Source: a virus. Taken from it: 64,000 bases of DNA. The notes under the pieces were generated by a model that saw nothing but the letters and a program-made list of their open reading frames with translations, was not told the origin of the DNA and did not search any database. Positions 1 through 59,240 of the stretch are shown here, in pieces. Numbering within the stretch: the first letter of the stretch is position 1; every line of letters begins with the position of its first letter. Where the stretch lies: the IMG/VR virus record IMGVR_UViG_3300031965_000022, positions 1-64,000 of that record. One strand, 5' to 3'. Position numbers and translations under genes: made by a program.

Positions 1-17
1 CGCTTTTTGGTTTCCAT
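1..17 (-). CDS. 5' end of a gene running off the left edge (METKK...)
   Basis: ATG at 17-15 preceded by GAGGAGGA and by motif near-copy 37-62; only 5 codons visible. Confidence 0.3.
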
Positions 18-36
18 GTTTTCCTCCTCACCCTAA

Positions 37-62
37 GATGCAACCCCAGCTCTAGAGGTTGC
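37..62 (-). promoter_or_regulatory. near-copy of phage bipartite motif (CAACCT-N14-GCATC on minus strand)
   Basis: plus strand GATGC(37-41)-N14-AGGTTG(56-61); one mismatch to consensus; 19 nt upstream of ATG at 17. Confidence 0.4.
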
Positions 63-606
63 TTGTCTCCTCTGCCGCCTCGATCCCGATACAACAGGCG
101 CGTTGCAGCACCATATCGCCCGCCCCCTCCGGCATCGTCCTCGCCACCAGCGCCGCTGCCTCCCCCGCCCACTTTGCCTCCGTTATCCGCGCCGATGTCC
201 ACACCGCCCACAGCGTTGCCAAGGACGCTTCTTCTAGTGTCCGAACAGATCGGCACTGCGTTCGCACCTCTACAGACAACTCAGGTAGTTCTGCGATGAT
301 CTCTCGTACTGTCCGCAGTACAACAATCTGTGTCCACGCCTTCTGTCGTGTCTGCGACCACGCCTGAGAACCCCACAACGCCGCCAACAGCGGAAGCATT
401 TCCCTTGTGCGAATTCCATCATTTGAGAATCCATCATTCAAAAGGCGCACGTCAAACATGGTCACAGGCTGGCCACTCCATTCCCTTCCCTCCACCTGGG
501 AGACAAATTCCAGGGCACAGAACTCCCGACCCGGAGGATGGCTTCCCTTTCGTAACAACCCCTCGTCTAACTCCGCCAACTTCTCACGTAACATTTCAAT
601 TGTCAT
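52..606 (-). CDS. hypothetical protein
   Basis: ORF track 52..666; start moved to ATG 606 (MTIEMLREK) with AAGGAGG 5 nt upstream. Confidence 0.6.
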   Translation of the reverse strand: MTIEMLREKLAELDEGLLRKGSHPPGREFCALEFVSQVEGREWSGQPVTMFDVRLLNDGFSNDGIRTREMLPLLAALWGSQAWSQTRQKAWTQIVVLRTVREIIAELPELSVEVRTQCRSVRTLEEASLATLWAVWTSARITEAKWAGEAAALVARTMPEGAGDMVLQRACCIGIEAAEETSNL

Positions 607-625
607 TCGCGCCTCCTTTGTCAGA

Positions 626-748
626 TTAGGACACAAAAACCGCCCGCCCATGCTCCACAAGATCATCCAGAAACGACCTCACCTGATAATCCATGAAGGC
701 CCACCGCGCCAGCACCTCATCCTGGTCCCCCCGGATGCCCAACCTCAT
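626..748 (-). CDS. hypothetical small protein (40 aa)
   Basis: frame of ORF 626..832; ATG 748 overlaps stop of 745..951 (ATGA). Confidence 0.4.
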   Translation of the reverse strand: MRLGIRGDQDEVLARWAFMDYQVRSFLDDLVEHGRAVFVS

Positions 749-951
749 TTGGCCCCCAGTGCGGCCCTTGCCGCTGACAGCGCCGTGATTAAGCGGTTCA
801 TTTCCGGGGCGCGTTGTAGGTAAATCTCCCACCCCGGCTCCCCATGAAAGGTGCGGATGATGCCGATTGACTCTTCGGAGACTTTGAGCAAATCCGCAAG
901 GGCTTGGGCGAAGTACTCAGGGCTTCCGAGTTGAGGTGATCCTGCCGTCAT
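745..951 (-). CDS. hypothetical protein
   Basis: ORF track; ATGA overlap with stop of 948..1289; G9 run upstream acts as SD-like element. Confidence 0.55.
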   Translation of the reverse strand: MTAGSPQLGSPEYFAQALADLLKVSEESIGIIRTFHGEPGWEIYLQRAPEMNRLITALSAARAALGAK

Positions 952-1289
952 TGCTTTACTACCCCCCCCCTCAGTGCTGCATGGAGCGCCTTAAACTCCG
1001 GCGTGACCCGCAGCACGGTGTAAATCGCCTTGGCTTCGATGCGGTCGCAAAGCGCCTTTGCTAGAGTTTCCAACTGTTCGATTCGTTCCAGGTTGCCCAG
1101 ATAACCTGCCTCTGCGTTTTCATAATCCTGCTTTGTACACTCAACGCATACCGGGCAGAAAAGCTCGTATGCATCCGTGTGCAGGCACAGCTCTTGCCCG
1201 ATCGGGGCAATGCAATCGGGGCAAGCAACATGGCCTGCCCCTGCGGGTTGCGGTACTCTCCGTAATCCGTCACAGGTTCCGCACCTCAT
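948..1289 (-). CDS. Cys-rich zinc-ribbon-like protein
   Basis: CGTC...CPDC...CPVCVEC cysteine pairs in N-terminal half; ATGA coupling to upstream gene. Confidence 0.6.
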   Translation of the reverse strand: MRCGTCDGLRRVPQPAGAGHVACPDCIAPIGQELCLHTDAYELFCPVCVECTKQDYENAEAGYLGNLERIEQLETLAKALCDRIEAKAIYTVLRVTPEFKALHAALRGGVVKQ

Positions 1290-1618
1290 GCCTTTGCCTC
1301 CTTCTGCAAGCTCTTCAAGAGTGCGCAGCGTTCCTTCTCGGCCTTTTCCTCGTCAATCTCGAAGTATTCCGCCAAGAGGGTTGTAATAGGCCGATACACT
1401 GGTTGCCAGTGCGAGCCGGGACAAAAGCTCCCGCCGTCGCAAGGGCACTCTTTGATCTCTACATATTCCGCCAGGTGTATGCCCGCCGTTGGTAGCCACT
1501 CTAAAAACTCTCCAATTGCTTGCGACTCTTTGTGATGCGCCGCAATCTTGTCGAGTGTCGGTGTCCTGGGCGATTTAAGCTTTCCGGGAAGCATTGCCGT
1601 GTCGAATTTTCTTGTCAT
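1286..1618 (-). CDS. hypothetical protein
   Basis: ORF 1286..1741 trimmed to ATG 1618 (MTRKFD), which forms an ATGA overlap with stop of 1615..2445. Confidence 0.6.
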   Translation of the reverse strand: MTRKFDTAMLPGKLKSPRTPTLDKIAAHHKESQAIGEFLEWLPTAGIHLAEYVEIKECPCDGGSFCPGSHWQPVYRPITTLLAEYFEIDEEKAEKERCALLKSLQKEAKA

Positions 1619-2445
1619 GCCGCCACCTCCCGCAGTGCGGAGCCGTCCACGCACACAACCCCGGAGGATAGGCGAACCTCGTACATCCCGGACAACTGCC
1701 CCTCGCACACCTTGCCGATCGCGCCCTCGTAGCCGTTGCAAATAACACGGTCTCCGACGGCCCAGCGGCTTTTGCCGCTCTCTGCTAGCTCAATGGCGGC
1801 ACAGGCTGCGTCAATCTCAGGCCCATGCGTCCGGTTGTCGGTCGCCATGTCAAGCAACCCGCGAATCCCCGACAACAAACCGTCAAGGCGCGCTTGGTGC
1901 TTTCTGTGAATCTCGCCCCAGTTCACGCGGATATGTGCGGCAAGCCAGTGTTGTTTGCCGTCGTTAATATCGCCGGAGCATTCCGGGTTGCAAACCTGTT
2001 TCGGCTCATCCTCAATGGCGTACCTGTAGAGCACGTCGCAGGCTTCCTCAAATGCCTGCATGGATGCGAAGTACTGTCGGGAGGTAGTCGGCAGATCGTA
2101 CAGCCAAAAGTGACGGAATGGCCGTCCGTGCTCGACTGCCTTATTGACGGCTTCCTGGAGGATGCGGAACTTCCGTCCGTCCGCTTCCTTGCCCGTGGGG
2201 TTTACCTGGATAGCGTCTCCGGTCTCGAATTCATACCACTGATTCGAGTGAACCCGTAGCGTATAGGTTCCCTGGCCTGTCAAAAATAGCTTGCCGTCAG
2301 AGTCTTTTTCAAGGATTCTCCGGGCAAGTTCAACGTCCTCGATTGGCTCGGCTACAAAACCTCCATGAAGCGAGAATGAACGAACGTTTACCGCGCTCCG
2401 TAGGGCTGTTTTGGAGTGGCTTGAATTCTTTCGTATGCGTGTCAT
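1615..2445 (-). CDS. hypothetical protein
   Basis: ORF 1615..2613 trimmed to ATG 2445 (MTRIRKN); motif copy 2502-2527 lies 56 nt upstream. Confidence 0.65.
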   Translation of the reverse strand: MTRIRKNSSHSKTALRSAVNVRSFSLHGGFVAEPIEDVELARRILEKDSDGKLFLTGQGTYTLRVHSNQWYEFETGDAIQVNPTGKEADGRKFRILQEAVNKAVEHGRPFRHFWLYDLPTTSRQYFASMQAFEEACDVLYRYAIEDEPKQVCNPECSGDINDGKQHWLAAHIRVNWGEIHRKHQARLDGLLSGIRGLLDMATDNRTHGPEIDAACAAIELAESGKSRWAVGDRVICNGYEGAIGKVCEGQLSGMYEVRLSSGVVCVDGSALREVAA

Positions 2446-2497
2446 GCGTTCCCCCTTTCGAGCAGCAGGCGCTGGCGGATGATCTTGCACACTCAGG

Positions 2498-3061
2498 CTA
2501 GGATGCTTCCACCACCAACGGGGTTGTATCACCCAACCATGCAAGGGGAGGCATCTTTTGTTGTGATACTTCCCGGACGGGAAACCACACCTCCCCCTCC
2601 GGCCACGCCCCACCCCAACCCAGCCCCGGCTTTCCTTGCTGCATCCTTAAATTGCACACCCAACACACCGGCGTTACTTCCAAGGGCTTGAAATAATCCC
2701 GATGATCGTACACCTGAGCACGTTTTCCGCACCCCTGGGAACAAAACCCCCAAACAGTGTTGAGGTTCGGCAGCAGTCCCATTTTCACCGCCTTTGCCAC
2801 GCATTGATGCCCCCAATGCTGTAGCATTCCATAAGTCCACGGAAGCGTTCTCCAGGTGCTCGTCCCCGCTCCCTTACGAGGTACTAGCACTTTTACCTTT
2901 TTCTTGGCCCTCGACCCCCGTGAGGGTTCCATATACTTCACCCCACGCTGCGCGGCAGAAAGCATTTTGGGGGTTATGACAACCCCCTTAGCCTCCAAAC
3001 CCTGAAGCCACTTCATAGCAGCATACTCTCGCCCCCCACAGGGGAACCGAATTTGAATCAT
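2498..3061 (-). CDS. hypothetical protein, possible His-Me finger (HNH-like) nuclease
   Basis: C-x3-C ... DHRDY-x-KPL-x-V-x3-C-x2-CN resembles beta-beta-alpha-metal nucleases (recall only); GGAGG SD; sigma70-like promoter upstream. Confidence 0.45.
   Translation of the reverse strand: MIQIRFPCGGREYAAMKWLQGLEAKGVVITPKMLSAAQRGVKYMEPSRGSRAKKKVKVLVPRKGAGTSTWRTLPWTYGMLQHWGHQCVAKAVKMGLLPNLNTVWGFCSQGCGKRAQVYDHRDYFKPLEVTPVCWVCNLRMQQGKPGLGWGGAWPEGEVWFPVREVSQQKMPPLAWLGDTTPLVVEAS
2502..2527 (-). promoter_or_regulatory. phage bipartite motif CAACCC-N14-GCATC (candidate promoter)
   Basis: plus strand GATGC(2502-2506)-N14-GGGTTG(2521-2526); 56 nt upstream of ATG 2445. Confidence 0.6.
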
Positions 3062-3081
3062 AGATAGGAACCTCCAAAAAC

Positions 3082-3110
3082 AGCATACACCCCTATTTGT
3101 CTAAGATCAA
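3082..3110 (-). promoter_or_regulatory. sigma70-like promoter candidate
   Basis: minus strand TTGATC (3110-3105), 17-nt spacer, TATGCT (3087-3082), followed by GGAGG and ATG 3061. Confidence 0.35.
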
Positions 3111-3212
3111 TATAAGATATATATTGATAACAAAGAGAGTAGGGGTGTCTAAGTCTAAGCATAAACACACAATCAGTGTCAAAAAACTGACACCTGTGAC
3201 ACTTTTTGTCAC
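3106..3212. promoter_or_regulatory. cluster of inverted repeats in an AT-rich intergenic island (operator-like)
   Basis: ATCAATAT/ATATTGAT 3106-3128; GTGTCA-N6-TGACAC 3176-3193; GTGACA-N5-TGTCAC 3196-3212; direct GTCTAAG repeats around 3099-3160. Confidence 0.5.
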
Positions 3213-3304
3213 CCTTTCCGCCTCTGGTTGGGGCTTTGGTTGAAAATCGCTGAGGTTTGGGGGAGCCGAGCCGTTCCAAGGCTAGGCAGGGACGGTCTAA
3301 AAGT

Positions 3305-4120
3305 CTACCCCTCCTCATTCTGAGAGACACGCTCCCACCACGGCGGGCGGTCCCACCATTCCACCTCTTCTTCCCCGTCGGACCAAAAATCGACCGCCGG
3401 GTCACGTACAACAGGCAAAGATGCCCAATCCACTTTACACAAGCGCTCAATTACACATTCCAGATAATCTACCGCAAGGGTTTCCTGTGGCCTATGCTCG
3501 CAAGCATACCCTATACCCAGATTGCTACACTCTGGGATTATCTCGGTGTAGTTCGCAGAGTCAGTGAAGGTGCCGCTCCCCGGCTTATGGCCCAAGCCGA
3601 GAGCCTCTGCCAAGCCGAGGGCAAACTCCAAAGAACAACAAGGCCCATTCCACTGCTCGACAATAACATCCTCCGCCCCGCGACGGTCTAAGGAAAGGCA
3701 AATGTCAAACTTTTCGAGGATATGCGGATAGTGATAAGCCAAGTAATCACTTCCCTTCCCGCCGATTTCTTCTGCTCGGTGAAAAATGACCGAGACCGGA
3801 GCCTCCGCCTGGATCATCCGCAGCGCTGCATACACTCCTGCGCCGTCATCCGCTCCCAGGCAGTTAGACACCCTCTCCTTCGGGTGGAGAGACACAACCC
3901 CCTTGCGCTCCTGAATGCGCTGCATTCCCTCCGAGCGATGGACTGTATCAGTATGGACCGCAATCATTGTGCGGCTACCCTCACGAAGAAACAAACGGTT
4001 CCCATACTCATCCCGCTGGATGCCCGGCACCGAATCAATGAGGTGTCGGACGAACCGCTCCTCAGTTTTGCTGTATGCCGGACGGCGATAGGCAAGAATT
4101 TCAGCTAGTAATGGGTTCAC
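3305..4120 (-). CDS. clan MH (M20/M28/M42-like) zinc metallopeptidase
   Basis: metal-ligand style motifs HTDTV, GADDGAG, AEEIGGKG, later D and H; GTG start in GTGA overlap with upstream stop. Confidence 0.7.
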   Translation of the reverse strand: MNPLLAEILAYRRPAYSKTEERFVRHLIDSVPGIQRDEYGNRLFLREGSRTMIAVHTDTVHRSEGMQRIQERKGVVSLHPKERVSNCLGADDGAGVYAALRMIQAEAPVSVIFHRAEEIGGKGSDYLAYHYPHILEKFDICLSLDRRGAEDVIVEQWNGPCCSLEFALGLAEALGLGHKPGSGTFTDSANYTEIIPECSNLGIGYACEHRPQETLAVDYLECVIERLCKVDWASLPVVRDPAVDFWSDGEEEVEWWDRPPWWERVSQNEEG

Positions 4121-5247
4121 CCAGACACCTCCTCTTCCTCTACTTCCTCTTCCGGCTCACAGGTACAATCCTCTACCAGATTCTCACACTCTCCGCAGCG
4201 CTCACACTCGCAGTCATCCGCCAGCTTTCCGCATTCCCCGCAACGCGAGCATCGGCAAGCGGAGAAACGAGCATCCACAACCTGGTCGCATTCTGGACAA
4301 TACTCGCAGTCACAGATATCGTGGGTGCGGCAATTTTCGCAGTGCTCGCAAATCGTGCAAGCCTCACAGTAAGGGTAGTAGTTCTCCTCGCAGCACTCGC
4401 AAAAACTACACTGACAATCATCCTCATCGCGGTCGCAGCGCTCGCATTGTAGGAGGTCGGCGGTACTAGCTGTACCGTCCGTCCGATCCCCAACATAATC
4501 ACCACCCTCAGATTCCACTACCCAATAACCCCCCCTGAGGGAAACACTCATTCCCCCATTATCCAGGTACGGCAAGACTTCATCTCCGTGGCGCAAGGGC
4601 AGACGATTCAATCGGCTCCCGGTTAGCTCGCCAAAATGATATCCCTGCTCGCCCAAAAGAGTCCGCAGCATAGAACAGTACGCCTCTGCACCTCCGACCG
4701 CATAAAGGCGCACGTATCGACTATCCTTTGTCGATACCACGGACCTGGCAACAATGTTACCGTATTGCATCAGGTACGCGACCGCCACGTCCGGGGAATC
4801 TGCATACACATGGTATGGCCTATGCTCCCAGGACGTAAATTTTCCGTGCATACAGGACACAGTTGTAGAGTCACACGGACACATCGCGGTCTCAAAGATG
4901 CGGTCAATGGTTTCCCTATCACTCGCAAACCGCAGCACGTACTCGTCTGCAGTCTCAACATAAGCCACGGCTGCGCGGAGTGCTACCACCCTCCGTTGTG
5001 TCTCACAGTCGCTCAGAGCGGGGAAGTACCTCTTTAGATACCTCCCGAACTTCATCCTCGTTTGCCGATCCCGCTCGCCATGCGGAGCGGAGGCAGTGAA
5101 GGCGACCATTTCGGGCGCACCATCCGTAGTAGATAGGTGTAGGAAGTGCTCTGGCTCAATTTCCAAACCACCCACCGCCTCCGAGGGAATCGGTTTGTAT
5201 TCCCCTGAGATGAGGCGGGCTTGTTCACGTGCCTGCCAAGGTTCCAT
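4117..5247 (-). CDS. hypothetical protein with extremely Cys-rich acidic C-terminal tail
   Basis: ORF 4117..5283; ATG 5247 (MEPWQ) follows a G10 SD-like run, alternative ATG 5283; last 109 aa hold 26 Cys, mostly as CxxC. Confidence 0.7.
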   Translation of the reverse strand: MEPWQAREQARLISGEYKPIPSEAVGGLEIEPEHFLHLSTTDGAPEMVAFTASAPHGERDRQTRMKFGRYLKRYFPALSDCETQRRVVALRAAVAYVETADEYVLRFASDRETIDRIFETAMCPCDSTTVSCMHGKFTSWEHRPYHVYADSPDVAVAYLMQYGNIVARSVVSTKDSRYVRLYAVGGAEAYCSMLRTLLGEQGYHFGELTGSRLNRLPLRHGDEVLPYLDNGGMSVSLRGGYWVVESEGGDYVGDRTDGTASTADLLQCERCDRDEDDCQCSFCECCEENYYPYCEACTICEHCENCRTHDICDCEYCPECDQVVDARFSACRCSRCGECGKLADDCECERCGECENLVEDCTCEPEEEVEEEEVSG

Positions 5248-5297
5248 TATTCCCCCCCCCCTTCGGTATGACGCTCGTACCATTTAGCGTTGTTGGG

Positions 5298-5357
5298 TTA
5301 TTCACACGCTACTTGCATCAGGGACGCTAGTTCCTTGTAGAGCGGACGTGTCATCAT
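5298..5357 (-). CDS. micro-ORF (19 aa, MMTRPLYKELASLMQVACE)
   Basis: AGGAGGG SD; 37 nt downstream of motif copy 5395-5420; too short to judge. Confidence 0.2.
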   Translation of the reverse strand: MMTRPLYKELASLMQVACE

Positions 5358-5394
5358 TGTTGCCCTCCTACTTTGGCGATTCGGACACCCATAC

Positions 5395-5420
5395 GATGCG
5401 CGGGTGCGTCGTGGGGTTGC
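5395..5420 (-). promoter_or_regulatory. phage bipartite motif CAACCC-N14-GCATC (candidate promoter)
   Basis: GATGC(5395-5399)-N14-GGGTTG(5414-5419). Confidence 0.55.
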
Positions 5421-6001
5421 CCAGGCCGCAGCCGCAGCCCGCCGGCCTGGCTGCGACCGCACCCGCACCCATCTCGTGGCTGCTACTTCGTACCGAAGAA
5501 ACCCCTTACCCCCCAGGAACGCAAAGGTCTAACGTCAGACCTTAGCGGTAGCTGCGATCCCCGGGGCGGTGGCACTCCGGCCTGGTGCAGCCCCGTGGCT
5601 GCGGCCATGCCGAGGCTTCCACCCCAGCCCTTAGGTGTGTGTGTGATGGTACCGCCCCCAGCACCACATGCCATTTTGGGCGGGCAACCTGCTTCAACGG
5701 CCATCACTCCACCTCTCTGGTTGGGACCACAAGATGTTGTGGGTCGACAGAGGCGGTGGCACAACCCGTCCGGGGTCCCAGGGTGGGGGCCGCCCAGCGG
5801 GGGCAACTCCGGGTCCTTCGCGGGACCCCCCGAAGGGGTACCTAAATTGTTACGGGGTGTGTGAGTTGGGGTGGGTTGGTGGAGGTTGCCATCTTTGGGA
5901 GGGTGGTTGGGCAGATTTTGCACCGCCGCTGCACAACTCTGACTGTAAGTTGTTGATAATTGCGGGGGGCTGGAAAGTTGGTGGGGTACCCTGGGAGGTA
6001 C
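5421..6001 (-). ncRNA. candidate large structured non-coding RNA or long structured intergenic region
   Basis: ~580 nt between two complete genes; only Pro/Gly-rich SD-less ORFs open in five frames; at least 7 tight GC hairpins including a nested helix at 5709-5759. Confidence 0.3.
5486..5507 (-). repeat. copy of AAGGGGTTTC-N-GGTACGAAG element
   Basis: plus CTTCGTACCGAAGAAACCCCTT; same element occurs three times at 49861-50003. Confidence 0.6.
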
Positions 6002-6304
6002 CTATGTAGTGGTTGGGGGCGTGTTGGCGATTTCCAACAGAGAATCCCCATGACAAGCCCTAGGAGCACACCAGCATCCAAAGACCTCGTTGGGGCGCTT
6101 TACGATCTCCTCACGGACCTTTCGTCGGTCGTACCCACGAATTACGTCAGGCCCGAAAACACCTGTAATCCAGTGGCGGTGTTTCAGAACGACCTCTTTT
6201 CGGGTCCCATCAACGCCAATCCTAAAGGGATTACCAAAGAGGGTGGTGCGGTCTATCAACAGGTCGTAGGGTTCTCGCTTGCAGTGAACTACTTTGGCGG
6301 GCAT
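6002..6304 (-). CDS. DUF4326-like protein
   Basis: KVVHCKREPYD..GNPF..CWC.P..CHGD pattern recalled for DUF4326; TAATG coupling. Confidence 0.7.
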   Translation of the reverse strand: MPAKVVHCKREPYDLLIDRTTLFGNPFRIGVDGTRKEVVLKHRHWITGVFGPDVIRGYDRRKVREEIVKRPNEVFGCWCAPRACHGDSLLEIANTPPTTT

Positions 6305-6648
6305 TATACCAACCTCCTCGTCGCCTCGTCCGGCACCACTGACTCATCTTGGTGACGCTTGCGCCAATCCCGAGGTGAGACGAACCCGGCGGTCTTCATC
6401 GGACCTTGTTCGGTGAGGATGAATGCCATATCTGTCATGGCGCTCAGACTCGGACCCGACTCCTTACGGCTGTAGGCGCTGCACCGGACGATCTGATCTT
6501 TAATCGGCGCTGGATTATCCCAGGAGACGCCGTGGCACCAGATACGCTCCCCTTGGCTCTCGCCCTGCATAATGACCGCGTGGTTGCAAGAGTCGCAGAG
6601 ACGCTTGGAGGGGGTGGTGCCGGAGCGGACGTTGAAGTGGATGCTCAC
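6304..6648 (-). CDS. hypothetical protein
   Basis: ORF 6304..6705 trimmed to GTG 6648, which forms a GTGA overlap with stop of 6645..6812. Confidence 0.55.
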   Translation of the reverse strand: MSIHFNVRSGTTPSKRLCDSCNHAVIMQGESQGERIWCHGVSWDNPAPIKDQIVRCSAYSRKESGPSLSAMTDMAFILTEQGPMKTAGFVSPRDWRKRHQDESVVPDEATRRLV

Positions 6649-6812
6649 TGGATCGTCTCCTTTTTGGCTCCCGGCGTCATCTTGGTGCCGCAGAAGCAAC
6701 AACAAGTCAACATTGGCGCATCCTCAGCTTGGCACAAGATAAGGCGCGTGCAGTGTGGGCAGAGGGCCGCAGCGAGGTGGAGCAGTCCGATGGGGCGATC
6801 ATCGGTGCTCAC
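6645..6812 (-). CDS. small Cys-rich protein (CPHC...CCCFC)
   Basis: ORF 6645..6848 trimmed to GTG 6812 (GTGA overlap with phosphoesterase stop, GGAGGG SD). Confidence 0.4.
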   Translation of the reverse strand: MSTDDRPIGLLHLAAALCPHCTRLILCQAEDAPMLTCCCFCGTKMTPGAKKETIQ

Positions 6813-7924
6813 TCCGCCCTCCACGCTGTCCAACAAAACGCCCCCCACCGGGGATGACTCAAAAAGCTAACCTGTGCGGGCGCGGAGTGCCGTCCGACCC
6901 CATGATCGAACTCGCTGGTGCCACTTAGCGAGCCGTTCACCAAAATCCCCCCCTCAATGATGGCTGGCACATGAAAGTGCCCAAGGGTGAGGTAGTCAAA
7001 CGCAATCTCTGGGCGGCGCATCCGCTTGAACCCCTCCCGCAGAGTGTGACGTGACATCCCCATATAGGGGATTCCCTGCCACGACTTGATGGTGTCGCCG
7101 TGTTCTGCCAAATACTTCACGCCGTCCAGGTTGACGACGTGCCGGAGCCCAGCGGGGAACTCGATGTCCACATTCTTGAGGGCGCTGAGGCGGGCATTCG
7201 CCACGGTGTAGACAAGGAAGCTCATGTTATTGGCCGACTTCTGTTTGAACTGCGGCTTGGGCTGGAGCCTGCCGTGGTTGTCAGCCCCCACTTCTACCAC
7301 CTTCACGTGCTGGAAGTGCGGGGCTAACTTGATAACCGCCTCCGCGAAGAGGTGTCCTGCGTTTGCGGCTTGCACCGGAAGCGGAAACTCATTGGTCCTC
7401 AACAGTTCGCTGTGGATGTCCCCTGACACCCAATCCCCAAGGCCGAGAATGCACAGGCGGGGGATGTTAAAGCTGGCGCGAAACATCTCTACCTGCTCTA
7501 GGAACTTTGTGGTGATGCGGTCCACCCGCTGTTGGGCGATAGCCCAGTTGAAGGTGCCGAAACCTTCTGTCTCATCCGCCTCGATCACCTCCCCGATATG
7601 CCAATCGGATAGCATCAAGACGGCGGTGAGGGGGCTGTGCTCCGAGGCAGTGGGTGTGAAGTTCAGAGGTGGGGGGTCGGCTGCGGTAACAGCCGATGCG
7701 ATCTGGTCAGTCAACTCACGTAGGAAGCCCCGGCTTTTCCGAAGTCTGGTGTTGTCGGCGGTCAGGCGCTTGATCTCCGTGCGGAGGTGCGCCTCCCTCT
7801 CAGTTGGGGGTAGGGTGTCACTTGTGGCAGATCGTGCAGATGCACACTGCGGACACTTCAGTACGTCCTGACGGAACACCTTTTCTTTATTACAGCTTGG
7901 ACAAAGACGTTTAACAGCTTTCAT
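6809..7924 (-). CDS. calcineurin-like metallophosphoesterase with N-terminal zinc ribbon
   Basis: SDWHIG, GLGDW, GADNHG, GHFH motifs in canonical order; CPSC...CPQC at N-terminus; ATG 7924 in ATGA overlap, AAGGAG SD. Confidence 0.75.
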   Translation of the reverse strand: MKAVKRLCPSCNKEKVFRQDVLKCPQCASARSATSDTLPPTEREAHLRTEIKRLTADNTRLRKSRGFLRELTDQIASAVTAADPPPLNFTPTASEHSPLTAVLMLSDWHIGEVIEADETEGFGTFNWAIAQQRVDRITTKFLEQVEMFRASFNIPRLCILGLGDWVSGDIHSELLRTNEFPLPVQAANAGHLFAEAVIKLAPHFQHVKVVEVGADNHGRLQPKPQFKQKSANNMSFLVYTVANARLSALKNVDIEFPAGLRHVVNLDGVKYLAEHGDTIKSWQGIPYMGMSRHTLREGFKRMRRPEIAFDYLTLGHFHVPAIIEGGILVNGSLSGTSEFDHGVGRHSAPAQVSFLSHPRWGAFCWTAWRAE

Positions 7925-8079
7925 TGGCTCTCCTTTCGCCACGATCCATCCGATTGTACTACATAAACGGTGCCATTGGCGGCTACCACCTGAGCGCCGG
8001 GTGGGAAGCCAGTCCCCTTTAGGGGGTGCCGCTTGGACTTCTTCACGATTTGTGGGGGCTTTGGAATTTTAATGGGCAT
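7921..8079 (-). CDS. hypothetical small protein (52 aa)
   Basis: ATG 8079 (MPIKIPK) with AAGGAGG 6 nt upstream. Confidence 0.5.
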   Translation of the reverse strand: MPIKIPKPPQIVKKSKRHPLKGTGFPPGAQVVAANGTVYVVQSDGSWRKESQ

Positions 8080-8260
8080 TAGGGGCCTCCTTTGCGGCCT
8101 TCCGCCGCACCCTTTCAAGAATCTCTGCGCACGCTTGGCACACCCAGATGGGCTGCCGCATCACCCGGTCCTCTACCACCCCCCAGCATCTCTGGCGAGT
8201 ACCGCAGAGGGGGCAGCGGATGATGCCGAATCGTCGGCCTAGGTGGGCAAACAGGGTCAT
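8069..8260 (-). CDS. small zinc-ribbon protein
   Basis: CPLC...CQAC pairs; ORF track. Confidence 0.55.
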   Translation of the reverse strand: MTLFAHLGRRFGIIRCPLCGTRQRCWGVVEDRVMRQPIWVCQACAEILERVRRKAAKEAPNAH

Positions 8261-8535
8261 GCTTCCTCCTTGTAGACATCATGGCCCCACACCCGCACCG
8301 CCCCGTGGACCTCCACCCCCCTGATGATCTCGCGCCATGCAGCGGCATTTACATCTCCGGTGGGTGAGAGCGTTAGGGGCCGTAGGGTCGGTAGGTCCTC
8401 TTCATAGATGGTGATGCCCGTGGCTGCGAAGCGGGTGGGGAAACGGAGGTTTAGGGTCTCCAACATTTGGGCTGGGGACGCGGCCACCAGGGGGGTGCCT
8501 GCTGGTACTGGTGCGTGGTAGAGGGTGGTCTTCAC
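8257..8535 (-). CDS. hypothetical protein
   Basis: GTG 8535 in GTGA overlap with upstream stop; AAGGAGG 5 nt upstream. Confidence 0.55.
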   Translation of the reverse strand: MKTTLYHAPVPAGTPLVAASPAQMLETLNLRFPTRFAATGITIYEEDLPTLRPLTLSPTGDVNAAAWREIIRGVEVHGAVRVWGHDVYKEEA

Positions 8536-8720
8536 TTGGCCTCCTTTTCGGCATCCGCCGCATCCGCAATCAGCCGTACCAGCGCCGTCCACCCATCAGT
8601 GCGGTGGTGCCCCCTTACGGTCCCCCTCCAGATGGGTGTTTCATTGATCCACGCACCCACTTCGTAGTCGCTCACCTCAGCTAGGTTACTAAGGTTGCGG
8701 GCTGTGATGATAAGGGCCAT
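8532..8720 (-). CDS. hypothetical protein
   Basis: ATG 8720 (MALIITARN) 2 nt after the sigma gene stop. Confidence 0.5.
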   Translation of the reverse strand: MALIITARNLSNLAEVSDYEVGAWINETPIWRGTVRGHHRTDGWTALVRLIADAADAEKEAK

Positions 8721-8722
8721 TC

Positions 8723-9166
8723 TTAGAGACCTCTGCTCTTGATCGATACTGCATCCGCAATCCCCCACTCCTCAAGTGACAACAGCCGCCTACGAGCCCT
8801 GCCCCCTGCATGGGTCTTTGTGCTGTAGAATCTATTTAGGACTAATAGTTTCGTCTGTGTAATCAACACCGCATGTGGGGAACGACCCTCAAATCCTTCG
8901 TCTATGCGCCGCATCGTCTGCAAAAAGGTGTCCTGAGTGATGTCTTCCGCATCTGCCCAATTGTGCGTCATGCTCAGGGTGAAGTGGAGCACCCTAAGGT
9001 AAAGGGGCAGATACCGCACCTCAAACTCCTCACGTCGGCGCTTGTGCAGGCTTTGGGCCTCGGCCTTTCGTTCCAGGCGCTCCAGGTCAGAGGGCGGGGC
9101 GGGGGTAGCCCGACGGGGCTGGTGCTTGGACTTTCGGAGGCTGGCGAGGAAGTCGTTTTGGGTCAT
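8723..9166 (-). CDS. minimal sigma-70 family (ECF-like) sigma factor
   Basis: region 2 signature WADAEDITQDTFLQ followed by LITQTKLLVLNRF; short C-terminal LSLEEWGIADAVSIKSR resembles a truncated region 4 HTH; only 147 aa. Confidence 0.55.
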   Translation of the reverse strand: MTQNDFLASLRKSKHQPRRATPAPPSDLERLERKAEAQSLHKRRREEFEVRYLPLYLRVLHFTLSMTHNWADAEDITQDTFLQTMRRIDEGFEGRSPHAVLITQTKLLVLNRFYSTKTHAGGRARRRLLSLEEWGIADAVSIKSRGL

Positions 9167-9174
9167 CTTAAACC

Positions 9175-9345
9175 TTAGATGCTCCTCGGGGCCGTGGGGT
9201 TGTCTAGCCGAATGACCGAACCGTGACGCTCACACCGCCACCCAATCGGCTCATTGGCGGTGTTGTAGAGGCTGACAAAGCAGGGAGCGCCACAGTGGGG
9301 GCAGGGGCGGGCGTTGGGGTCGTGGACTTGGTGGATTTTATTCAT
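9175..9345 (-). CDS. small zinc-ribbon protein (56 aa, not in ORF track)
   Basis: MNKIHQVHDPNARPCPHCGAPC...WRCERH; TAATG coupling to 9345..9551; its 3' end contains motif copy 9178-9203. Confidence 0.45.
   Translation of the reverse strand: MNKIHQVHDPNARPCPHCGAPCFVSLYNTANEPIGWRCERHGSVIRLDNPTAPRSI
9178..9203 (-). promoter_or_regulatory. phage bipartite motif CAACCC-N14-GCATC directly upstream of the sigma gene
   Basis: GATGC(9178-9182)-N14-GGGTTG(9197-9202); 11 nt upstream of ATG 9166. Confidence 0.6.
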
Positions 9346-9551
9346 TATTCCTCAGGTGGGGCATCTTCCCCCCACTCACCAATGAGATTCCCGCACCAGT
9401 CTACAGAGTACCATATCTTGCGTTGGACTCCACGATGGCCATATGGCTCGGCAGGAGTTCCTGCAAGTGCGTTGACGTGCCACGGGTCATCCACTAACTC
9501 AAAGTGGTGATGGGAAGGACTGAGGCGCTTCATTTTATCCTTGGTGGTCAT
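9345..9551 (-). CDS. hypothetical protein
   Basis: ATG 9551 in ATGA overlap with upstream stop. Confidence 0.5.
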   Translation of the reverse strand: MTTKDKMKRLSPSHHHFELVDDPWHVNALAGTPAEPYGHRGVQRKIWYSVDWCGNLIGEWGEDAPPEE

Positions 9552-9775
9552 ATTGCGTGGCTCCACTCTCCACCTCCTTCGTAGCGCAGGCCGTGCCGGG
9601 TTGCAACCACAGCTAATCGGTCCTCCGCATCCTCCAAGTCGAAGGTCGGCTCACCGACCCAAAAGGTGGCTGCAAACTCCCCACCCACCTGCTCCTCTAT
9701 CAAGGGTTGGTAGCAAGGCGCTTGGCGCACTACTGACTCGTCAATGAAACCGTGGAGGCGACGTTCAGGTCTCAT
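9548..9775 (-). CDS. hypothetical protein
   Basis: ATG 9775 (GTG 9778 alternative) with AAGGAG upstream. Confidence 0.5.
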   Translation of the reverse strand: MRPERRLHGFIDESVVRQAPCYQPLIEEQVGGEFAATFWVGEPTFDLEDAEDRLAVVATRHGLRYEGGGEWSHAI

Positions 9776-9992
9776 CACTTTGCTCCTTGATTACAATAAC
9801 TCGTAGGTCTGGGCCGGGAGATGTAGTTTCTACCAAAAATGTCACCCCCTCCGGAGAACCTTCAACCCCAACCAGGACAGCATCCTCCGGGAATCCCTCC
9901 AACACCTCAGTCCTCTTCTTTGGAGGCCACTTAGCCCCTGTTTGAAACAACTGCCTCAGCAACTCGAACGAGAATCGAAATTTAACGTGCAT
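9765..9992 (-). CDS. hypothetical protein
   Basis: ATG 9992 (GTG 9995 alternative) with AAGGAGG upstream, coupled to ATPase stop. Confidence 0.5.
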   Translation of the reverse strand: MHVKFRFSFELLRQLFQTGAKWPPKKRTEVLEGFPEDAVLVGVEGSPEGVTFLVETTSPGPDLRVIVIKEQSDET

Positions 9993-11005
9993 CACCCCTC
10001 CTTCCGCATCCTCCCACCCCCAAGATCGGTCACCAACCCCAGCCTCACCAGCCGGGTCCGCATGTTGTACGCGCTGGCCCGCGACAGCTTATCATCCCCT
10101 TCTAGGTCAGCGACCGTGAACTCCCCCGGCGGCAACATCCGCCACAGTTCCGCCTGCCGGTCAGTCAGCATCGCCGTGAGATCATCTTCCTCCCGTAGCG
10201 GTGCGGGTTTGAAGCCCGCGAGCTTCGGTTTCCCCTCTTCGTCCGACCCCAGGATCACACTTTCCAGCATCATCGGCTCCATATCCTCACCGCGTCTCCA
10301 CCCGTTGAAAAAGAAGATACGATCCCCTGCATCCCCTTTGTACTCCAACCCCAACCGCACATCGCTGCGGCTCTGAATCTCCATCCCCCCGGATGCCTCC
10401 TCCAGCCAATCCCGAGGGTCCTTAATCAACGAAGGTTGCTGCGCGGCAATCCTAGACTTCTTTCTGGTGTTGAAGGTAAACACGAAGGTCAACCCTGGGT
10501 AGGTGCGGTGCAGCATCCGACACCACTTATACACCACCATAATGTGCATTCCCTTCTTAGTGTCCACCGGAAAGAACATATTGAAGGGGTCTACCATAAC
10601 TACCGCATCGGGTTTTGCCGCCACCTTCGACTCCAGCCACTTCATCCTTTCGTCCATTGACTTTGCCAGCACGTTTAGCAATTCAGCGGTGGAGACGTTC
10701 TCGTCACTACCGGCCTCCAGGAACATCTCCACCGTTGCGGGGTCATCTGGCGGAGTCAAGCTGTGGCGCTCCCCCATTGCAGCCCACCCACGCCAAAAGG
10801 CCCATGCCGGGGTTTCGTGTGCGAGCATCAACACCGGACGGCGCTGCACCCGCCGACCGCACCACCGCAACCCGGTGGTGAGGCAAAAGGCCCACTCCGC
10901 CAGCAACGGCGACTTCCCCGCCCCAAAGGTTCCTGAAATGGTGACAAGCTGGGCCTCTCGAAAGATACCCTCAATCAATTCGATGCGCGGTGGCGGAACG
11001 ATCAC
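9992..11005 (-). CDS. P-loop ATPase, RecA/DnaB-like (AAA_25-type), C-terminal wHTH-like segment
   Basis: Walker A GTFGAGKS in the context typical of RepA/AAA_25 ATPases; GTG start with AAGGAG 5 nt upstream. Confidence 0.7.
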   Translation of the reverse strand: MIVPPPRIELIEGIFREAQLVTISGTFGAGKSPLLAEWAFCLTTGLRWCGRRVQRRPVLMLAHETPAWAFWRGWAAMGERHSLTPPDDPATVEMFLEAGSDENVSTAELLNVLAKSMDERMKWLESKVAAKPDAVVMVDPFNMFFPVDTKKGMHIMVVYKWCRMLHRTYPGLTFVFTFNTRKKSRIAAQQPSLIKDPRDWLEEASGGMEIQSRSDVRLGLEYKGDAGDRIFFFNGWRRGEDMEPMMLESVILGSDEEGKPKLAGFKPAPLREEDDLTAMLTDRQAELWRMLPPGEFTVADLEGDDKLSRASAYNMRTRLVRLGLVTDLGGGRMRKEG

Positions 11006-11021
11006 TCAGACTCCTTAACCC

Positions 11022-11050
11022 TTGACATCTTTGCGGGGATGTGGTATGTT
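11022..11050 (+). promoter_or_regulatory. sigma70-like promoter candidate for the plus-strand block
   Basis: TTGACA (11022-11027), 17-nt spacer, TATGTT (11045-11050), in the gap between the divergent blocks. Confidence 0.4.
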
Positions 11051-11068
11051 TGGGGAAGGTATTTCCCT

Positions 11069-11530
11069 ATGAGCCAACCCCACCTCCCCAGCGAGTGGTG
11101 GCCCGAGACCATCCGCATAATCGTCGAAGAGGGCCTGACGCCCCTTCCCGGTGAAACCAACGGCCAATTTGTCATCCGAGCTAACACCCTTGCAGGCTAC
11201 AACACTCCCGAAGAGGATGTCAAGGCCGCGTCCCGCAGCCGCATGTGGCGTGAGCATCTCGACGCGGCGATGAAAAGCCATTATGTCCACCTCTACCAAA
11301 CCGTGGCGCAGGATAAGGCCATCGCCGTTGGCCGGATGACCGCTCTGTCGATGAAGCTGGAGCGCCAAGGTAAAACCAAGGACGCCCTTGATGGCCTCGC
11401 CAGCGTCATCAAAGCTGAGGGGGCCATCGACTCGGATTCACTGCTCGACGCTTTGTCGGGCACGGCCCTCCAGAAAGCCCTCACCGAGGTCAGGGAGCGG
11501 AAAGCCGTGAAGGTTGAGAAGGTCAACTAA
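11069..11530 (+). CDS. hypothetical protein (small terminase possible by position only)
   Basis: ORF 11039..11530 trimmed to ATG 11069 because 11039 lies inside the candidate promoter. Confidence 0.5.
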   Translation: MSQPHLPSEWWPETIRIIVEEGLTPLPGETNGQFVIRANTLAGYNTPEEDVKAASRSRMWREHLDAAMKSHYVHLYQTVAQDKAIAVGRMTALSMKLERQGKTKDALDGLASVIKAEGAIDSDSLLDALSGTALQKALTEVRERKAVKVEKVN

Positions 11531-11704
11531 TCCTCGCCATAAGTTGAGATGCTGTGTAGGATGTACCACCAGGTATACAGCCACCAATGGCGGCACCTAA
11601 CGCCTCCCAGTAATTGACGAGGGGAGGGCTGTTATATTGTGATGGGGTTGTAGCTGCAAAGACCTCTTTTATGTTTGCCGGGGACAGCCCTCCGGCCTTT
11701 GCAG

Positions 11705-11926
11705 CTAAAAAGGGCGGACGATGATCTCCACCCGGTTGAGCTTGTCGGCGTACTTCTCCGGCACCGCACGGGCCGCCCGCATCGCCACTTCTTCCTGTGA
11801 TTGGGATAGGGTTGCGGCAATAGGTACCACGATCTCCGACGGTGGGGTGGTATCGTTCCCTGCCGCATCTTTTAACTCCTTGTGGTGAAACAAAACTGCG
11901 TATTGAAACAACTTTGACTGTGCCAT
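11705..11926 (-). CDS. hypothetical protein (73 aa), lone antisense gene inside the plus-strand block
   Basis: ATG 11926 (MAQSKLFQYAVLFH...VRPF) with AAGGAGG 6 nt upstream; motif copy 12033-12058 upstream. Confidence 0.6.
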   Translation of the reverse strand: MAQSKLFQYAVLFHHKELKDAAGNDTTPPSEIVVPIAATLSQSQEEVAMRAARAVPEKYADKLNRVEIIVRPF

Positions 11927-12032
11927 TGGGCACCTCCTTAATTGATCTACAAATCCGGTTACACACTCGAACTCGTGAAAGTCAAGGGCCAGTGGCGTCT
12001 GGTGTTGAGGTCGCTGCCCCCAAAGTAACTTA

Positions 12033-12058
12033 GATGCCCCGTTCCCTTTGGGGGTTGC
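12033..12058 (-). promoter_or_regulatory. phage bipartite motif CAACCC-N14-GCATC (candidate promoter)
   Basis: GATGC(12033-12037)-N14-GGGTTG(12052-12057); 106 nt upstream of ATG 11926. Confidence 0.6.
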
Positions 12059-12086
12059 CTTAGACTGCATTTCTGGCGACGACGCC

Positions 12087-12116
12087 TTAGCATCTCAATG
12101 TTTCGTAAAATATACT
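12087..12116 (+). promoter_or_regulatory. sigma70-like promoter candidate
   Basis: TTAGCA (12087-12092), 18-nt spacer, TATACT (12111-12116); back-to-back with motif copy 12033-12058. Confidence 0.35.
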
Positions 12117-12140
12117 CTGGCGAAGAAAGGTATTCTCTCA

Positions 12141-12326
12141 TTGGATATCATACAGGACGGCTGCTCCATCCCCTGGGCCACGCCCTGTCTCCTCTGCCAG
12201 CAAGCTATCCAGCCGCAGGATGATTGGACCTACCTCATCTCCCGAATGCGCGGCATCTATCCCGTCCACGATGCTTGTGTGGGCAGCGACTACACCGATA
12301 AGGGAATCTCTTTAGACACCGCATAA
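12141..12326 (+). CDS. hypothetical small Cys/His protein
   Basis: frame of ORF 12048..12326; TTG 12141 lies downstream of the candidate promoter; weak SD. Confidence 0.3.
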   Translation: MDIIQDGCSIPWATPCLLCQQAIQPQDDWTYLISRMRGIYPVHDACVGSDYTDKGISLDTA

Positions 12327-12407
12327 TTACTCCCCAACAGCAAGAATTGTCCATGTGCTGGGTACAATACGGGAGCCCTCGTCGTTCACGGTTATCGGTA
12401 TTAGGGC

Positions 12408-13952
12408 ATGTTTTCAACCTCCGACTCCGACTTACTTTCGCAAATCACCTCAGGGGCTAAAGATGAGTCCGAAGAGGAAGCTCGACTTATTATAGCCGAG
12501 AGTTTACGCCGTGACAAGAAATTTGTTGCATACTGGGAACCTTGTGGGGATCAGGTTAAGTTCTGGGAGCAACTGAGGCCGGAGCAAAAGGTCTGGTTGG
12601 TTCTTGGGGGTAATCGGGCAGGCAAGTCCGATTTAGGATGCTTTCTTATTACGGCGTGGTTATTGGGGAAAGACTACTTCCGCGACGAGGTAAACTGGAG
12701 GTGGGTAGAGCCTTTACCCATCCCTGAAGGTCCTGTCAACGTCCGCTCTGTTGGACTCAACAGCGATCTTTTGAAGGACCCCCTGTGGGAGAAATTGACA
12801 GCATCCACCGATCATCCCCCATTCTTTCCTAAGAACGCCCTCAAATCTAAATCAGATCATCAAATCAGCGCCCGATTCAAACGCGGCAGCAAATATACAG
12901 GGAAGTCAGCAGATGTAGACCCCCGAACCCACGGTGGTCCCTCGTGTCATTTAGTCCACTTAGATGAGGAATGCACCAAGGCCATATACGACGAATCGTA
13001 CCAGCGTACTGTGTCTACAGGAGGTAAACTTTTGGTGACAGCTACCCCCCTGCTCGATGTTGCAACCACCCAACAACCCTGGCTCTACGATCTCGTTGAA
13101 GAGTGGAAGGTGGGCAATCCCGAAATTGGAGTGGTGCTGATGTCTGCGTTGAACAACCCCCACACCCCTGAGGCAGAAAAAAGGAAACTATTAACCAAGT
13201 GGAGGGGCCATCCAGAGGAACGAGCTAGACTCTATGGAGAGTTTTTCCAACGAAGTGGGAGGTACTATTCAGGGTGGAAGTCCGAACCCCCACTCTGGGT
13301 CCCCGCCCACGACATCCCTCCGGACCACATGCGGGTGGTAATGATCGACCCGGCTGTCACCGGCTACGTCGGGGCGCTATGGGCTGCCATCAGCCCCAAA
13401 GGAAAGATGAGTCTCTACCGTGCCTACAAGGAAAAGGGCCGCACAGTCTCCCAGCATGTGGAGGCTATTCTCACCGAGAACCGGGGCGACCCCATCCGCA
13501 TCTGGGCCTGTGACCCGTTCATGGGCCGCCAGCGGGTCCCCGACGCCCAGCTTAAGGAGGATTACAAAACAGTCCTCCAGGTGTGGCGGGAAGCGGGCTT
13601 GAGCCGCCTCATCTACCCCGATCTCGACTACACCCGCGCCCTTGCAGCCTCTCACGAGTACATGGATGCGGCCTTTGACCCCACACACCCACACCCGCCG
13701 GTTGAGGTTTTCGACCACCTCAGCGAGTGGGAGTGGGAAATCAGCCGCTACGTCATTGACGCTGTGGCCCAGGGGCCGAATCGGGGTGCTGTGCGGGACC
13801 GCCCCCGCAAGGGCCGTGACGGTTCCTCAACCCTCATGGAGTGTTATCAGTATCTCTGTGGGATGCGGTTGCGGGCTCCAGCAGAATCTCCCCGGCCAAG
13901 GCCGCAGCGCCCAATGGTCCGCACCAAACCGTGGGGGGATGAGACGTGGTGA
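12408..13952 (+). CDS. terL: terminase large subunit
   Basis: Walker A GGNRAGKS, Walker B-like HLVHLDEE, C-terminal nuclease-like half; 514 aa. Confidence 0.85.
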   Translation: MFSTSDSDLLSQITSGAKDESEEEARLIIAESLRRDKKFVAYWEPCGDQVKFWEQLRPEQKVWLVLGGNRAGKSDLGCFLITAWLLGKDYFRDEVNWRWVEPLPIPEGPVNVRSVGLNSDLLKDPLWEKLTASTDHPPFFPKNALKSKSDHQISARFKRGSKYTGKSADVDPRTHGGPSCHLVHLDEECTKAIYDESYQRTVSTGGKLLVTATPLLDVATTQQPWLYDLVEEWKVGNPEIGVVLMSALNNPHTPEAEKRKLLTKWRGHPEERARLYGEFFQRSGRYYSGWKSEPPLWVPAHDIPPDHMRVVMIDPAVTGYVGALWAAISPKGKMSLYRAYKEKGRTVSQHVEAILTENRGDPIRIWACDPFMGRQRVPDAQLKEDYKTVLQVWREAGLSRLIYPDLDYTRALAASHEYMDAAFDPTHPHPPVEVFDHLSEWEWEISRYVIDAVAQGPNRGAVRDRPRKGRDGSSTLMECYQYLCGMRLRAPAESPRPRPQRPMVRTKPWGDETW

Positions 13953-17358: not shown

Positions 17359-17435
17359 GCCCCGCTAGCTCCAAATGATAGAGCGGGGGTTTTGTAAACC
17401 CTAGGTTCCTGGTTTGAATCCAGGGCGGGGCTCCA
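17359..17435 (+). tRNA. tRNA-Thr (anticodon UGU), CCA encoded
   Basis: hand-folded cloverleaf: acceptor GCCCCGC/GCGGGGC, D stem GCTC/GAGC, anticodon stem GGGGT/ACCCT, loop TTTGTAA, T stem CCTGG/CCAGG, discriminator T plus CCA; D loop lacks GG and T loop is TTTGAAT. Confidence 0.75.
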
Positions 17436-48022: not shown

Positions 48023-48048
48023 GATGCCCCGGCGCTCAGTGGGGTTGT
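48023..48048 (-). promoter_or_regulatory. phage bipartite motif CAACCC-N14-GCATC (candidate promoter)
   Basis: GATGC(48023-48027)-N14-GGGTTG(48042-48047). Confidence 0.6.
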
Positions 48049-48084
48049 ATCGGTAGCGCTCCTCCCAGAGACGGGAGAGGCGGG

Positions 48085-49811: not shown

Positions 49812-49860
49812 CACCGTCCTCCTTCGCCTTTTGTTCGCCCCCACTCTCCGCGTCGCGGGA

Positions 49861-50003
49861 AAGGGGTTTTTGCGGTACGAAGGGAGTAACCGGCTTGTAA
49901 GCGCCCTTCGTACCCCAGGTCGTGAAACCCCTTAAGAAACACGTTGCCTGGCTTTGAGTGACGCTGCATCCGGCTTCCCCTCTTCGTACCACAGAAACCC
50001 CTT
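49861..50003. repeat. three copies (one inverted) of AAGGGGTTTC-N-GGTACGAAG(G)G able to form alternative long hairpins
   Basis: 49861-49884 forward; 49904-49933 and 49977-50003 reverse complement; nested 9-bp plus 11-bp pairing between the first two. Confidence 0.65.
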
Positions 50004-50807: not shown

Positions 50808-50833
50808 GATGCCCCGGAGGCCGTCGGGGTTGC
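50808..50833 (-). promoter_or_regulatory. phage bipartite motif CAACCC-N14-GCATC (candidate promoter)
   Basis: GATGC(50808-50812)-N14-GGGTTG(50827-50832). Confidence 0.6.
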
Positions 50834-59216: not shown

Positions 59217-59240
59217 CTTTGTTCTCCTTTGAAGCTACGA

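Follow-up and report, generated by a model that had tools for sequence, protein, structure and literature searches.

A C-rich, gene-free gap as a possible boundary between two leftward operons in a novel phage of ~66 kb

The gene-free gap and its surroundings

The window analysed here, a stretch of 64,000 nucleotides of a virus genome (IMG/VR record IMGVR_UViG_3300031965_000022), corresponds, with a rotated start point, to a phage contig of ~66 kb that was assembled as a circle (ena:ERZ27256875:k141_3595624); locus L001 has the identical sequence. Circularity here is that of the assembly graph alone, with a presumed 141-nt k-mer overlap. Two blocks, 1-12000 and 43600-64000, have their genes on the minus strand, read leftward, and in the block between them (12400-43500) the genes are read rightward. 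Our subject is the gap at positions 5422-6001, which lies between the stop of a DUF4326 gene (6002) and a promoter-like motif at 5395-5421 (Table 1). In the direction of transcription, the unit upstream of the gap comprises genes for a Sigma70_r2 protein, an exonuclease, a 133-aa open reading frame (ORF) and the DUF4326 protein; the last of these ends the leftward gene run downstream of the promoter-like site 9204->9178. Beyond the gap follow a 19-codon ORF, the gene of a 376-aa Cys-rich protein and a peptidase-like gene. An initial annotation had proposed that the gap is a large structured RNA, with a Rho-dependent terminator as the alternative reading. The composition and layout of the gap point to the latter, and we tentatively consider it the boundary between two co-directional transcription units.

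Table 1. Coordinates of the features in and around the gap, numbered as in the window.
Feature	Position	Strand	Remark
Peptidase-like gene	3305-4120	-	Partner of 376-aa gene
376-aa Cys-rich protein gene	4117-5247	-	First large gene of downstream unit
19-codon ORF MMTRPLYKELASLMQVACE	5298-5357	-	Strong Shine-Dalgarno (SD) sequence AGGAGGG 5-7 nt upstream
Promoter-like element GGCAACCCC-N13-GCATC	5395-5421	-	Reads leftward
Long imperfect GC-rich inverted repeat	5398-5468		-53.4 kcal/mol, z=-4.16, 0/200 shuffles as stable
Copy of 21-22 bp motif, CTTCGTACC-N2-AR-AAACCCCTT	5486-5507	+	65 bp upstream of promoter-like motif
CTTCG/CGAAG	5486-5498		Within 21-bp motif
AAGGTCT-N6-AGACCTT	5524-5543		Perfect 7-bp hairpin, from hairpin scan
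GCAGCC/GGCTGC	5587-5602		Hairpin
Nested hairpin CCACC..CUCUG/CAGAG..GGUGG	5709-5759	-	Encloses CCACAA/UUGUGG (5727-5742); -21.9 kcal/mol, z=-2.08, 5/200 shuffles as stable
Adjacent GC hairpins CCCC-UUCG-GGGG and GGGUCC-CGCGAA-GGACCC	5838-5827 and 5828-5811	-	Candidate RNA polymerase pause site
GGGTCC/GGACCC	5811-5816/5823-5828		Read from sequence
CCCC-CGAA-GGGG	5827-5838		UUCG loop on minus strand
Core rut-like window	5843-5920	-	36 C and 5 G in 78 nt, C/G=7.2
C-rich, G-poor tract	5805-6053	-	Candidate Rho loading zone; 78-nt windows with C/G>=2
GGTACC/GGTACC	5985-5990/5997-6002		Read from sequence
DUF4326 gene	6002-6304	-	Pfam PF14216, E=1.2e-17; 100-aa gene call on source contig
Exonuclease gene	6809-7942	-	Between Sigma70_r2 gene and gap
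Sigma70_r2 protein gene	8723-9166	-	Upstream of gap in transcription direction
Copies of RCAACCCC-N13-GCATCYWA	37-63, 2502-2528, 5395-5421, 9178-9204, 12033-12059, 48023-48049	-	Leftward
Further copies of RCAACCCC-N13-GCATCYWA	50808-50834, 51027-51053, 58052-58078, 58924-58950, 62990-63016	-	Leftward
Cluster of three further copies of 21-bp motif	49857-50003		Two in one orientation (one with 10-nt spacer), one inverted

The gap was the longest gene-free stretch of this compact genome on a crude gene map, and its GC content was 63-70% compared to 57% for the genome. Its non-coding status is well supported. The signal-to-noise ratio of the period-3 signal was 0.38 against a genome median of 3.95, within the lowest 1% of windows, and the ORFs of the gap had flat GC content over the three codon positions and codon scores of -0.08 to -0.17, like shadow ORFs. 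None of the gap ORFs matched Pfam or PHROG. The 146-aa minus-strand ORF had no match in large protein collections, and the 113-aa plus-strand ORF found only itself among 1.84 billion representatives. The gap had been annotated as gene-free from the outset, with ORFs that lack an SD sequence at their listed starts; the ORF and Pfam data bore this out, and the check for coding signal (periodicity, codon bias, ribosome-binding sites and homologues) came out negative. One or more hidden genes are hardly credible on these grounds: the minus strand does have an ORF of 146 aa and the plus strand two, of 163 and 113 aa, and the gene caller used on the source contig called pieces of 91 and 73 aa, but they are contradicted by the very low periodicity, the flat codon-position GC, the negative codon scores, the missing SD sequences and the lack of any Pfam or PHROG match, and 5.8 billion clusters and 1.84 billion representatives held no homologue apart from the ORF itself.

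The C-rich tract, its hairpins and the fold of the gap

On the minus-sense RNA the 5' part of the gap had been described as C-rich and G-poor, and a composition scan found this bias to be real and extreme. The tract begins in the final codons of the DUF4326 gene and runs into untranslated RNA to ~5805, with 39-45% C and 13-20% G; two overlapping C-rich tracts (6053-5927 and 5947-5805) are among the ten longest in the window. The frequency of YC dimers in 6001-5845 was 0.25, compared to 0.138±0.041, which is in the top 1%. Among all 78-nt windows on the minus strand, the core one, 5920->5843, was the most extreme (fraction 2e-5); it carries a chain of 7 C residues spaced by 11-13 nt. The 150 nt at 5855-6004 are weakly structured, at -29.2 kcal/mol compared to -65 to -74 kcal/mol for the neighbouring windows, and the rut-like RNA is untranslated as well, lying past the DUF4326 stop in sequence with no coding signal.

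Two adjacent GC hairpins with loops of 4-6 nt start 5 nt downstream of this window, and further hairpins follow at 5759-5709, 5602-5587 and 5543-5524. The RhoTermPredict consensus asks for a 78-nt window with C/G>1 and a C residue every 11-13 nt, then for a GC-rich hairpin with a loop of 4-8 nt within 150 nt downstream (PMC6407284), and both steps were found here, in the core window and the paired hairpins. Taken alone, the 38-mer of the paired hairpins was no more stable than its shuffles (z=+0.28). With its C/G ratio of 7.2 and the hairpins directly behind it, the rut-like window supports the reading that the initial annotation had placed second. A putative Rho-dependent terminator after the DUF4326 gene is well supported by the sequence, and this reading is better supported than the large RNA that the annotation had put first.

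In phage lambda, tR1 with its rutA and rutB sites is a Rho-dependent terminator at an operon boundary. The gap shares with terminators of this kind a tract of at least 78 nt that is ribosome-free, C-rich, G-poor and only weakly folded and that begins right behind a stop codon, a regular C spacing, GC-rich pause hairpins within 150 nt, and a position between two co-directional phage units. It differs from them in that there is no sequence homology and no known antiterminator element (nut/N-like) here, and in that the candidate termination zone would be unusually long and GC-rich and ends in a hairpin of -53 kcal/mol that overlaps the next promoter. With intrinsic terminators the gap has in common stable GC hairpins downstream of a gene; the difference is the U-run, since no hairpin in 5395-6001 was followed by one in a scan of 4900-6500. 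A scan of the two leftward-gene thirds of the genome showed no enrichment of terminator-like sites anywhere.

The helices that had been listed for the gap were all found in place on inspection of the sequence. That the region is packed with them could not be confirmed beyond chance, their excess being only marginal: the gap contained four perfect hairpins of at least 6 bp, compared to 1.44±1.24 in 1000 dinucleotide shuffles, of which 6.7% reached four (p≈0.07), and ~4% of equally long windows across the genome also reached this number. For the whole of 5422-6001 the minimum free energy gave z=-1.33 on both strands (100 shuffles), and ensemble diversity was not below that of the shuffles. Over its whole length the gap thus did not fold significantly more stably, or in a better-defined way, than shuffled sequence. 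Parts of it gave lower values: 5422-5850 reached z=-1.84 on the minus and -2.95 on the plus strand, and only 5351-5600 was significant locally. Among 150-nt windows only those in 5351-5600 reached z values of -2 to -3.5, while those in 5600-6000 were near 0; in the genome as a background, 5% of 150-nt windows had z<=-2.

Comparison with known RNAs gave no support to a large RNA of the ROOL/GOLLD kind, a likeness that the initial annotation had drawn while claiming no homology; we found no Rfam match, no significant global fold and no homologous region. At the gathering threshold, cmscan of the whole window against Rfam 15 returned only a tRNA-Thr at 17359, and at E<=10 over 5100-6300 it returned one spurious match, to the enterovirus 5' cloverleaf (18.8 bits, compared to a gathering threshold of 46). 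The likeness to ROOL and GOLLD lies in the similar size of the gap (~580 nt), the phage context and the many hairpins (PMC5737381, PMC12286853). In contrast to these classes, the gap has no match to either covariance model, no further Rfam family matches it up to E<=10, and it has no conserved homologues and no significant global fold. The only tRNA gene of the window is ~11 kb away from it. The family names point to the rumen, lakes and Lactobacillales, whereas the gap sequence is GC-rich.

Searches for related sequence were likewise negative. The other public copies of the region, from two further samples (L002 and L047), are 100% identical to it, flanking genes included, and because the flanking genes are identical too, this identity is uninformative. 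The region had no blastn match in 50,697 phage records, and blastn, nhmmer and tblastx found nothing resembling it in seven loci with a homologue of the 376-aa protein and eight with a homologue of the exonuclease. Degenerate-pattern scans derived from the translation of the 163-aa ORF gave no match in IMG/VR or the JGI metagenomes. Additional candidates were rejected. ARAGORN detected only the tRNA-Thr (17359-17435) in the window and no tRNA, tmRNA or attP-like remnant in the gap. The iterons or tandem repeats, AT-rich tract and global skew inflection of a replication origin were missing, as were the terminal inverted repeats of a transposon or miniature inverted-repeat transposable element. 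A decayed copy of the ~100-aa extra domain seen in homologues of the 376-aa protein left no trace in the window by tblastn.

Recurring motifs at the downstream edge and the flanking genes

The promoter-like motif at 5395-5421, already pointed out in the initial annotation, proved to belong to a convincing family of eleven members, RCAACCCC-N13-GCATC. The pattern of the element itself, GGCAACCCC-N13-GCATC, had 13 matches with up to two mismatches, compared to 0.97 expected, and a position weight matrix recovered 11 strong copies, all of them leftward, with an SD-like sequence or start codon at most ~45 nt downstream in eight. The copy at 9204 precedes the sigma gene and that at 12059 heads the leftward block. 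All copies fall in the blocks of leftward genes (early and replication), and the block of rightward structural genes has none. Being bipartite, of fixed spacing and single orientation, and placed upstream of gene starts, it is promoter-like and would fit a sigma-factor-type promoter. Promoters of extracytoplasmic function (ECF)-type and phage sigma factors are bipartite, with AAC in the -35 element, a CGTC-like -10 element and a spacer of 16-17 nt. The present motif resembles them in its two parts, in the 16 nt from GCAAC to GCATC and in its place just before the SD sequence or start, and the phage encodes a Sigma70_r2 protein; it differs in that the sigma gene is itself preceded by the motif. 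To our knowledge, the consensus matches no characterised sigma regulon. Many copies can form a CCCC/GGGG hairpin in the spacer.

Within 5422-6001 the best score of the family matrix on either strand was 0.4 bits, compared to at least 26 bits for real copies; because no copy lies there, the gap has no promoter of its own of the recurrent class. No canonical sigma-70 promoter was found in the gap, and such promoters were not enriched in the two-thirds of the genome scanned. The promoter-proximal arm of the inverted repeat at 5398-5468 holds the first element and spacer of the promoter-like motif. The 150-nt windows across this repeat had z values of -2.2 to -3.5 on both strands, and its hairpin is followed by GCAUCGUAUGGG, with no U-run. 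The repeat would take on its structure solely in transcripts that read through from upstream, or else would act as DNA. The 19-codon ORF with its strong SD sequence lies 37 nt past the promoter-like motif, which matches the placement in other family members, and it is likely the first cistron after the promoter. It was missed by the gene caller on the source contig and may be a leader peptide or a micro-protein.

A second recurring motif of 21 bp, TTCGTACCNNAGAAACCCCTT, occurs at 5487-5507(+), 49861-49881(-) and 49983-50003(+), three matches where 0.01 were expected, and a variant with a longer spacer (10 nt) is at 49906-49933. It is confined to two intergenic regions of the window, in mixed orientation. 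The cluster at 49857-50003 immediately precedes the gene of a membrane protein rich in Trp and Gly (49383-49811, with an ATG near 49811) and looks like an operator cluster; two of its copies form a long interrupted palindrome, AAGGGGTTT..GTACGAAGG-N23-CCTTCGTAC..AAACCCCTT. The initial annotation had noted an element shared with 49861-50003 that includes the CTTCG/CGAAG helix. The recurrence held, and the helix is not kept in the other copies. Because the hairpin is absent from these, the conserved unit is not the helix but the sequence, which fits a protein-binding site, and we consider the motif a candidate binding site of a regulator. Scans for it gave no match in IMG/VR, ten single matches in metagenomes and 18 in GTDB genomes; the latter two sets are attributed to chance because none of the matches has phage-related content.

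The phage is distant from any isolate. The identity of its terminase to known terminases does not exceed 27%, a terminase search of IMG/VR found no relative, and the 376-aa protein had in this comparison a single match, at 29.5%. More widely, the 376-aa protein had 89 homologues, with a best identity of 54%, and the best homologue of the DUF4326 protein was 56% identical. The 376-aa family is uncharacterised and has no Pfam domain; its core is invariant, and CxxC/CxC motifs are arrayed at the C-terminus. Many homologues carry the extra domain of ~100 aa, N-terminal in P0003-P0008 and C-terminal in P0022, P0024 and P0066, which is absent from this phage. The peptidase-like gene always follows the 376-aa gene in the loci checked (the pairing is kept in L003-L005), and in relatives the pair is a mobile module that frequently opens an operon or stands close to its start, with a long control region in front: in L005, 665 nt separate the 376-aa homologue gene from a divergent helix-turn-helix (HTH) gene, and L014 and L016 have divergent junctions one to three genes upstream of the homologue. 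Loci found via the exonuclease gene had non-syntenic neighbours.

Some further observations concern these genes and the rest of the window. The gap of L005 (1931-2595), the locus of the closest 376-aa relative (54%), has many copies of the short motifs CCTAGTACTRC and GGCGTAC; it adjoins the divergent HTH_3 gene in an arrangement that resembles a phage immunity region, and near 1950-2040 there is, by eye only, a tRNA-like sequence on the opposite strand. In the window, a homopolymer of ten C residues on the plus strand at 5252-5261 reads as G10 in the coding sense and makes up the ribosome-binding region of the 376-aa gene, with 4 nt between it and the ATG. Slipped-strand changes (phase variation) might occur at this run, which is of equal length in the two copies covering it (L001 and L047). 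At 59222-59407 lies a tandem array of hexamers (CCGACC/GCGACC/ACGACC; 12-nt spacing according to the repeat finder), which on the leftward strand would encode an Arg/Gly-type low-complexity repeat within an ORF. The minus-strand gene at 51024-53672 encodes an 882-aa protein with a uracil-DNA-glycosylase-superfamily domain (25-171) and a family A DNA polymerase domain (489-867).

Interpretation of the gap

The reading that we favour, to which we give slightly less than an even chance, is that the gap separates two transcription units of a novel phage, both of them leftward, and is not the gene of a large folded RNA. The sigma-exonuclease-DUF4326 transcript would pass its last stop codon into ~160-250 nt of ribosome-free, weakly structured, C-rich RNA, where Rho of the host would load. 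Over the next ~300 nt, GC-rich hairpins would pause RNA polymerase and let Rho release the transcript. This termination zone would close with the very stable hairpin at 5398-5468, which could also protect the 3' end. The last ~110 bp would serve the control of the next unit at the DNA level, with the putative regulator site at 5487-5507 followed by the RCAACCCC-N13-GCATC promoter. The sigma-70-family protein of the phage (8723-9166) may read this promoter, which would drive the 19-codon ORF, the 376-aa gene and the peptidase gene. Of this, the non-coding nature of the region, its extreme composition, the positions of the hairpins and the two recurring motifs with their placement relative to genes are observed, whereas the dependence on Rho, the factor reading the promoter and the function of the regulator site are inferred.

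Several points weigh against this reading. It presupposes a host that has Rho, and criteria of the RhoTermPredict type are permissive, with 23,930 predictions in E. coli (PMC6407284). Elsewhere, for example at 2528->2502 and 51053->51027, family promoters run into the ends of genes without any intervening spacer, and because the same promoter class lies up- and downstream of the gap and is spacer-free elsewhere, a need for insulation at this junction is unexplained. About 300 nt (5510-5810) have no specific role beyond that of a termination zone. The plus strand of 5422-5850 folds at z=-2.95, and a GC content of 63-70% is high for non-coding DNA and would also fit selection for structure.

These last two points bear on whether the gap encodes a structured non-coding RNA of ~400-580 nt that is specific to the lineage and has its own function, either as the 3' untranslated region (UTR) of the DUF4326 unit or as an antisense plus-strand transcript. 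We consider this distinctly improbable. The gap is indeed the longest gene-free stretch of a compact genome, with raised GC, a mildly raised hairpin count (p≈0.07), one C(UUCG)G tetraloop on the minus strand, z values of -1.84 and -2.95 on the two strands of 5422-5850, and complete identity in three samples; however, that identity says nothing when the flanks are identical as well, Rfam was empty even at E<=10, the whole region reached only z=-1.33 with an ensemble diversity like that of shuffles and z near 0 in 5600-6000, neither strand has a phage promoter of the recurrent class within the gap, and no similar sequence was found in 12 related loci or in viral, metagenome and protein collections. 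A narrower form of the idea, which we judge a shade less probable still, would make the GC-rich core (~5422-5850) a new structured RNA confined to this lineage, carried by the 3' UTR of an early or middle operon or transcribed in antisense, with the C-rich tract as its single-stranded platform instead of a Rho site. Such an orphan RNA would escape comparative methods only because the phage lineage has no sequenced relatives.

The gap could also be a neutral spacer, left over from recombination at a module junction or from a decayed gene, with only the promoter-proximal ~110 bp under selection. The 376-aa and peptidase genes are a mobile module found in many contexts, the neighbours of the exonuclease gene show no synteny among relatives, and the stretch itself has no relatives anywhere. 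We nevertheless hold this to be unlikely, as 0.5 kb of functionless DNA is rarely retained in phage genomes, a gene in decay would be expected to keep a period-3 signal or protein similarity and neither was found, the extra domain of the 376-aa homologues left no remnant, and a composition extreme exactly at the stop codon looks selected. Terminal-repeat regions, as in T7, are gene-free, G/C-skewed and rich in small hairpins, and a collapsed direct terminal repeat or concatemer junction, marking the physical genome ends of a phage with defined-end packaging, would agree with circularity in the assembly-graph sense only (the presumed 141-nt k-mer overlap) and with the family A DNA polymerase. 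Pseudomonas podoviruses including Bruynoghevirus have short terminal repeats, and the large terminase is ~25% identical to theirs. This similarity is too remote to infer the packaging mode, however; arrays of short direct repeats are missing, and the divergent junction at 11966-12408, beside the terminase gene, is a more natural place for the ends, so that we regard genome ends at the gap as very improbable.

A discrete stable RNA at this locus would raise its importance, and the present evidence makes such an RNA unlikely. If instead the gap is an operon boundary, as we favour, it would represent ordinary but clean phage gene regulation and would open no new question. It would provide a textbook-grade rut signature and a promoter family defined here for the first time, from a phage lineage without cultured relatives, which would be of use for genome annotation and for training predictors of factor-dependent terminators beyond model organisms.

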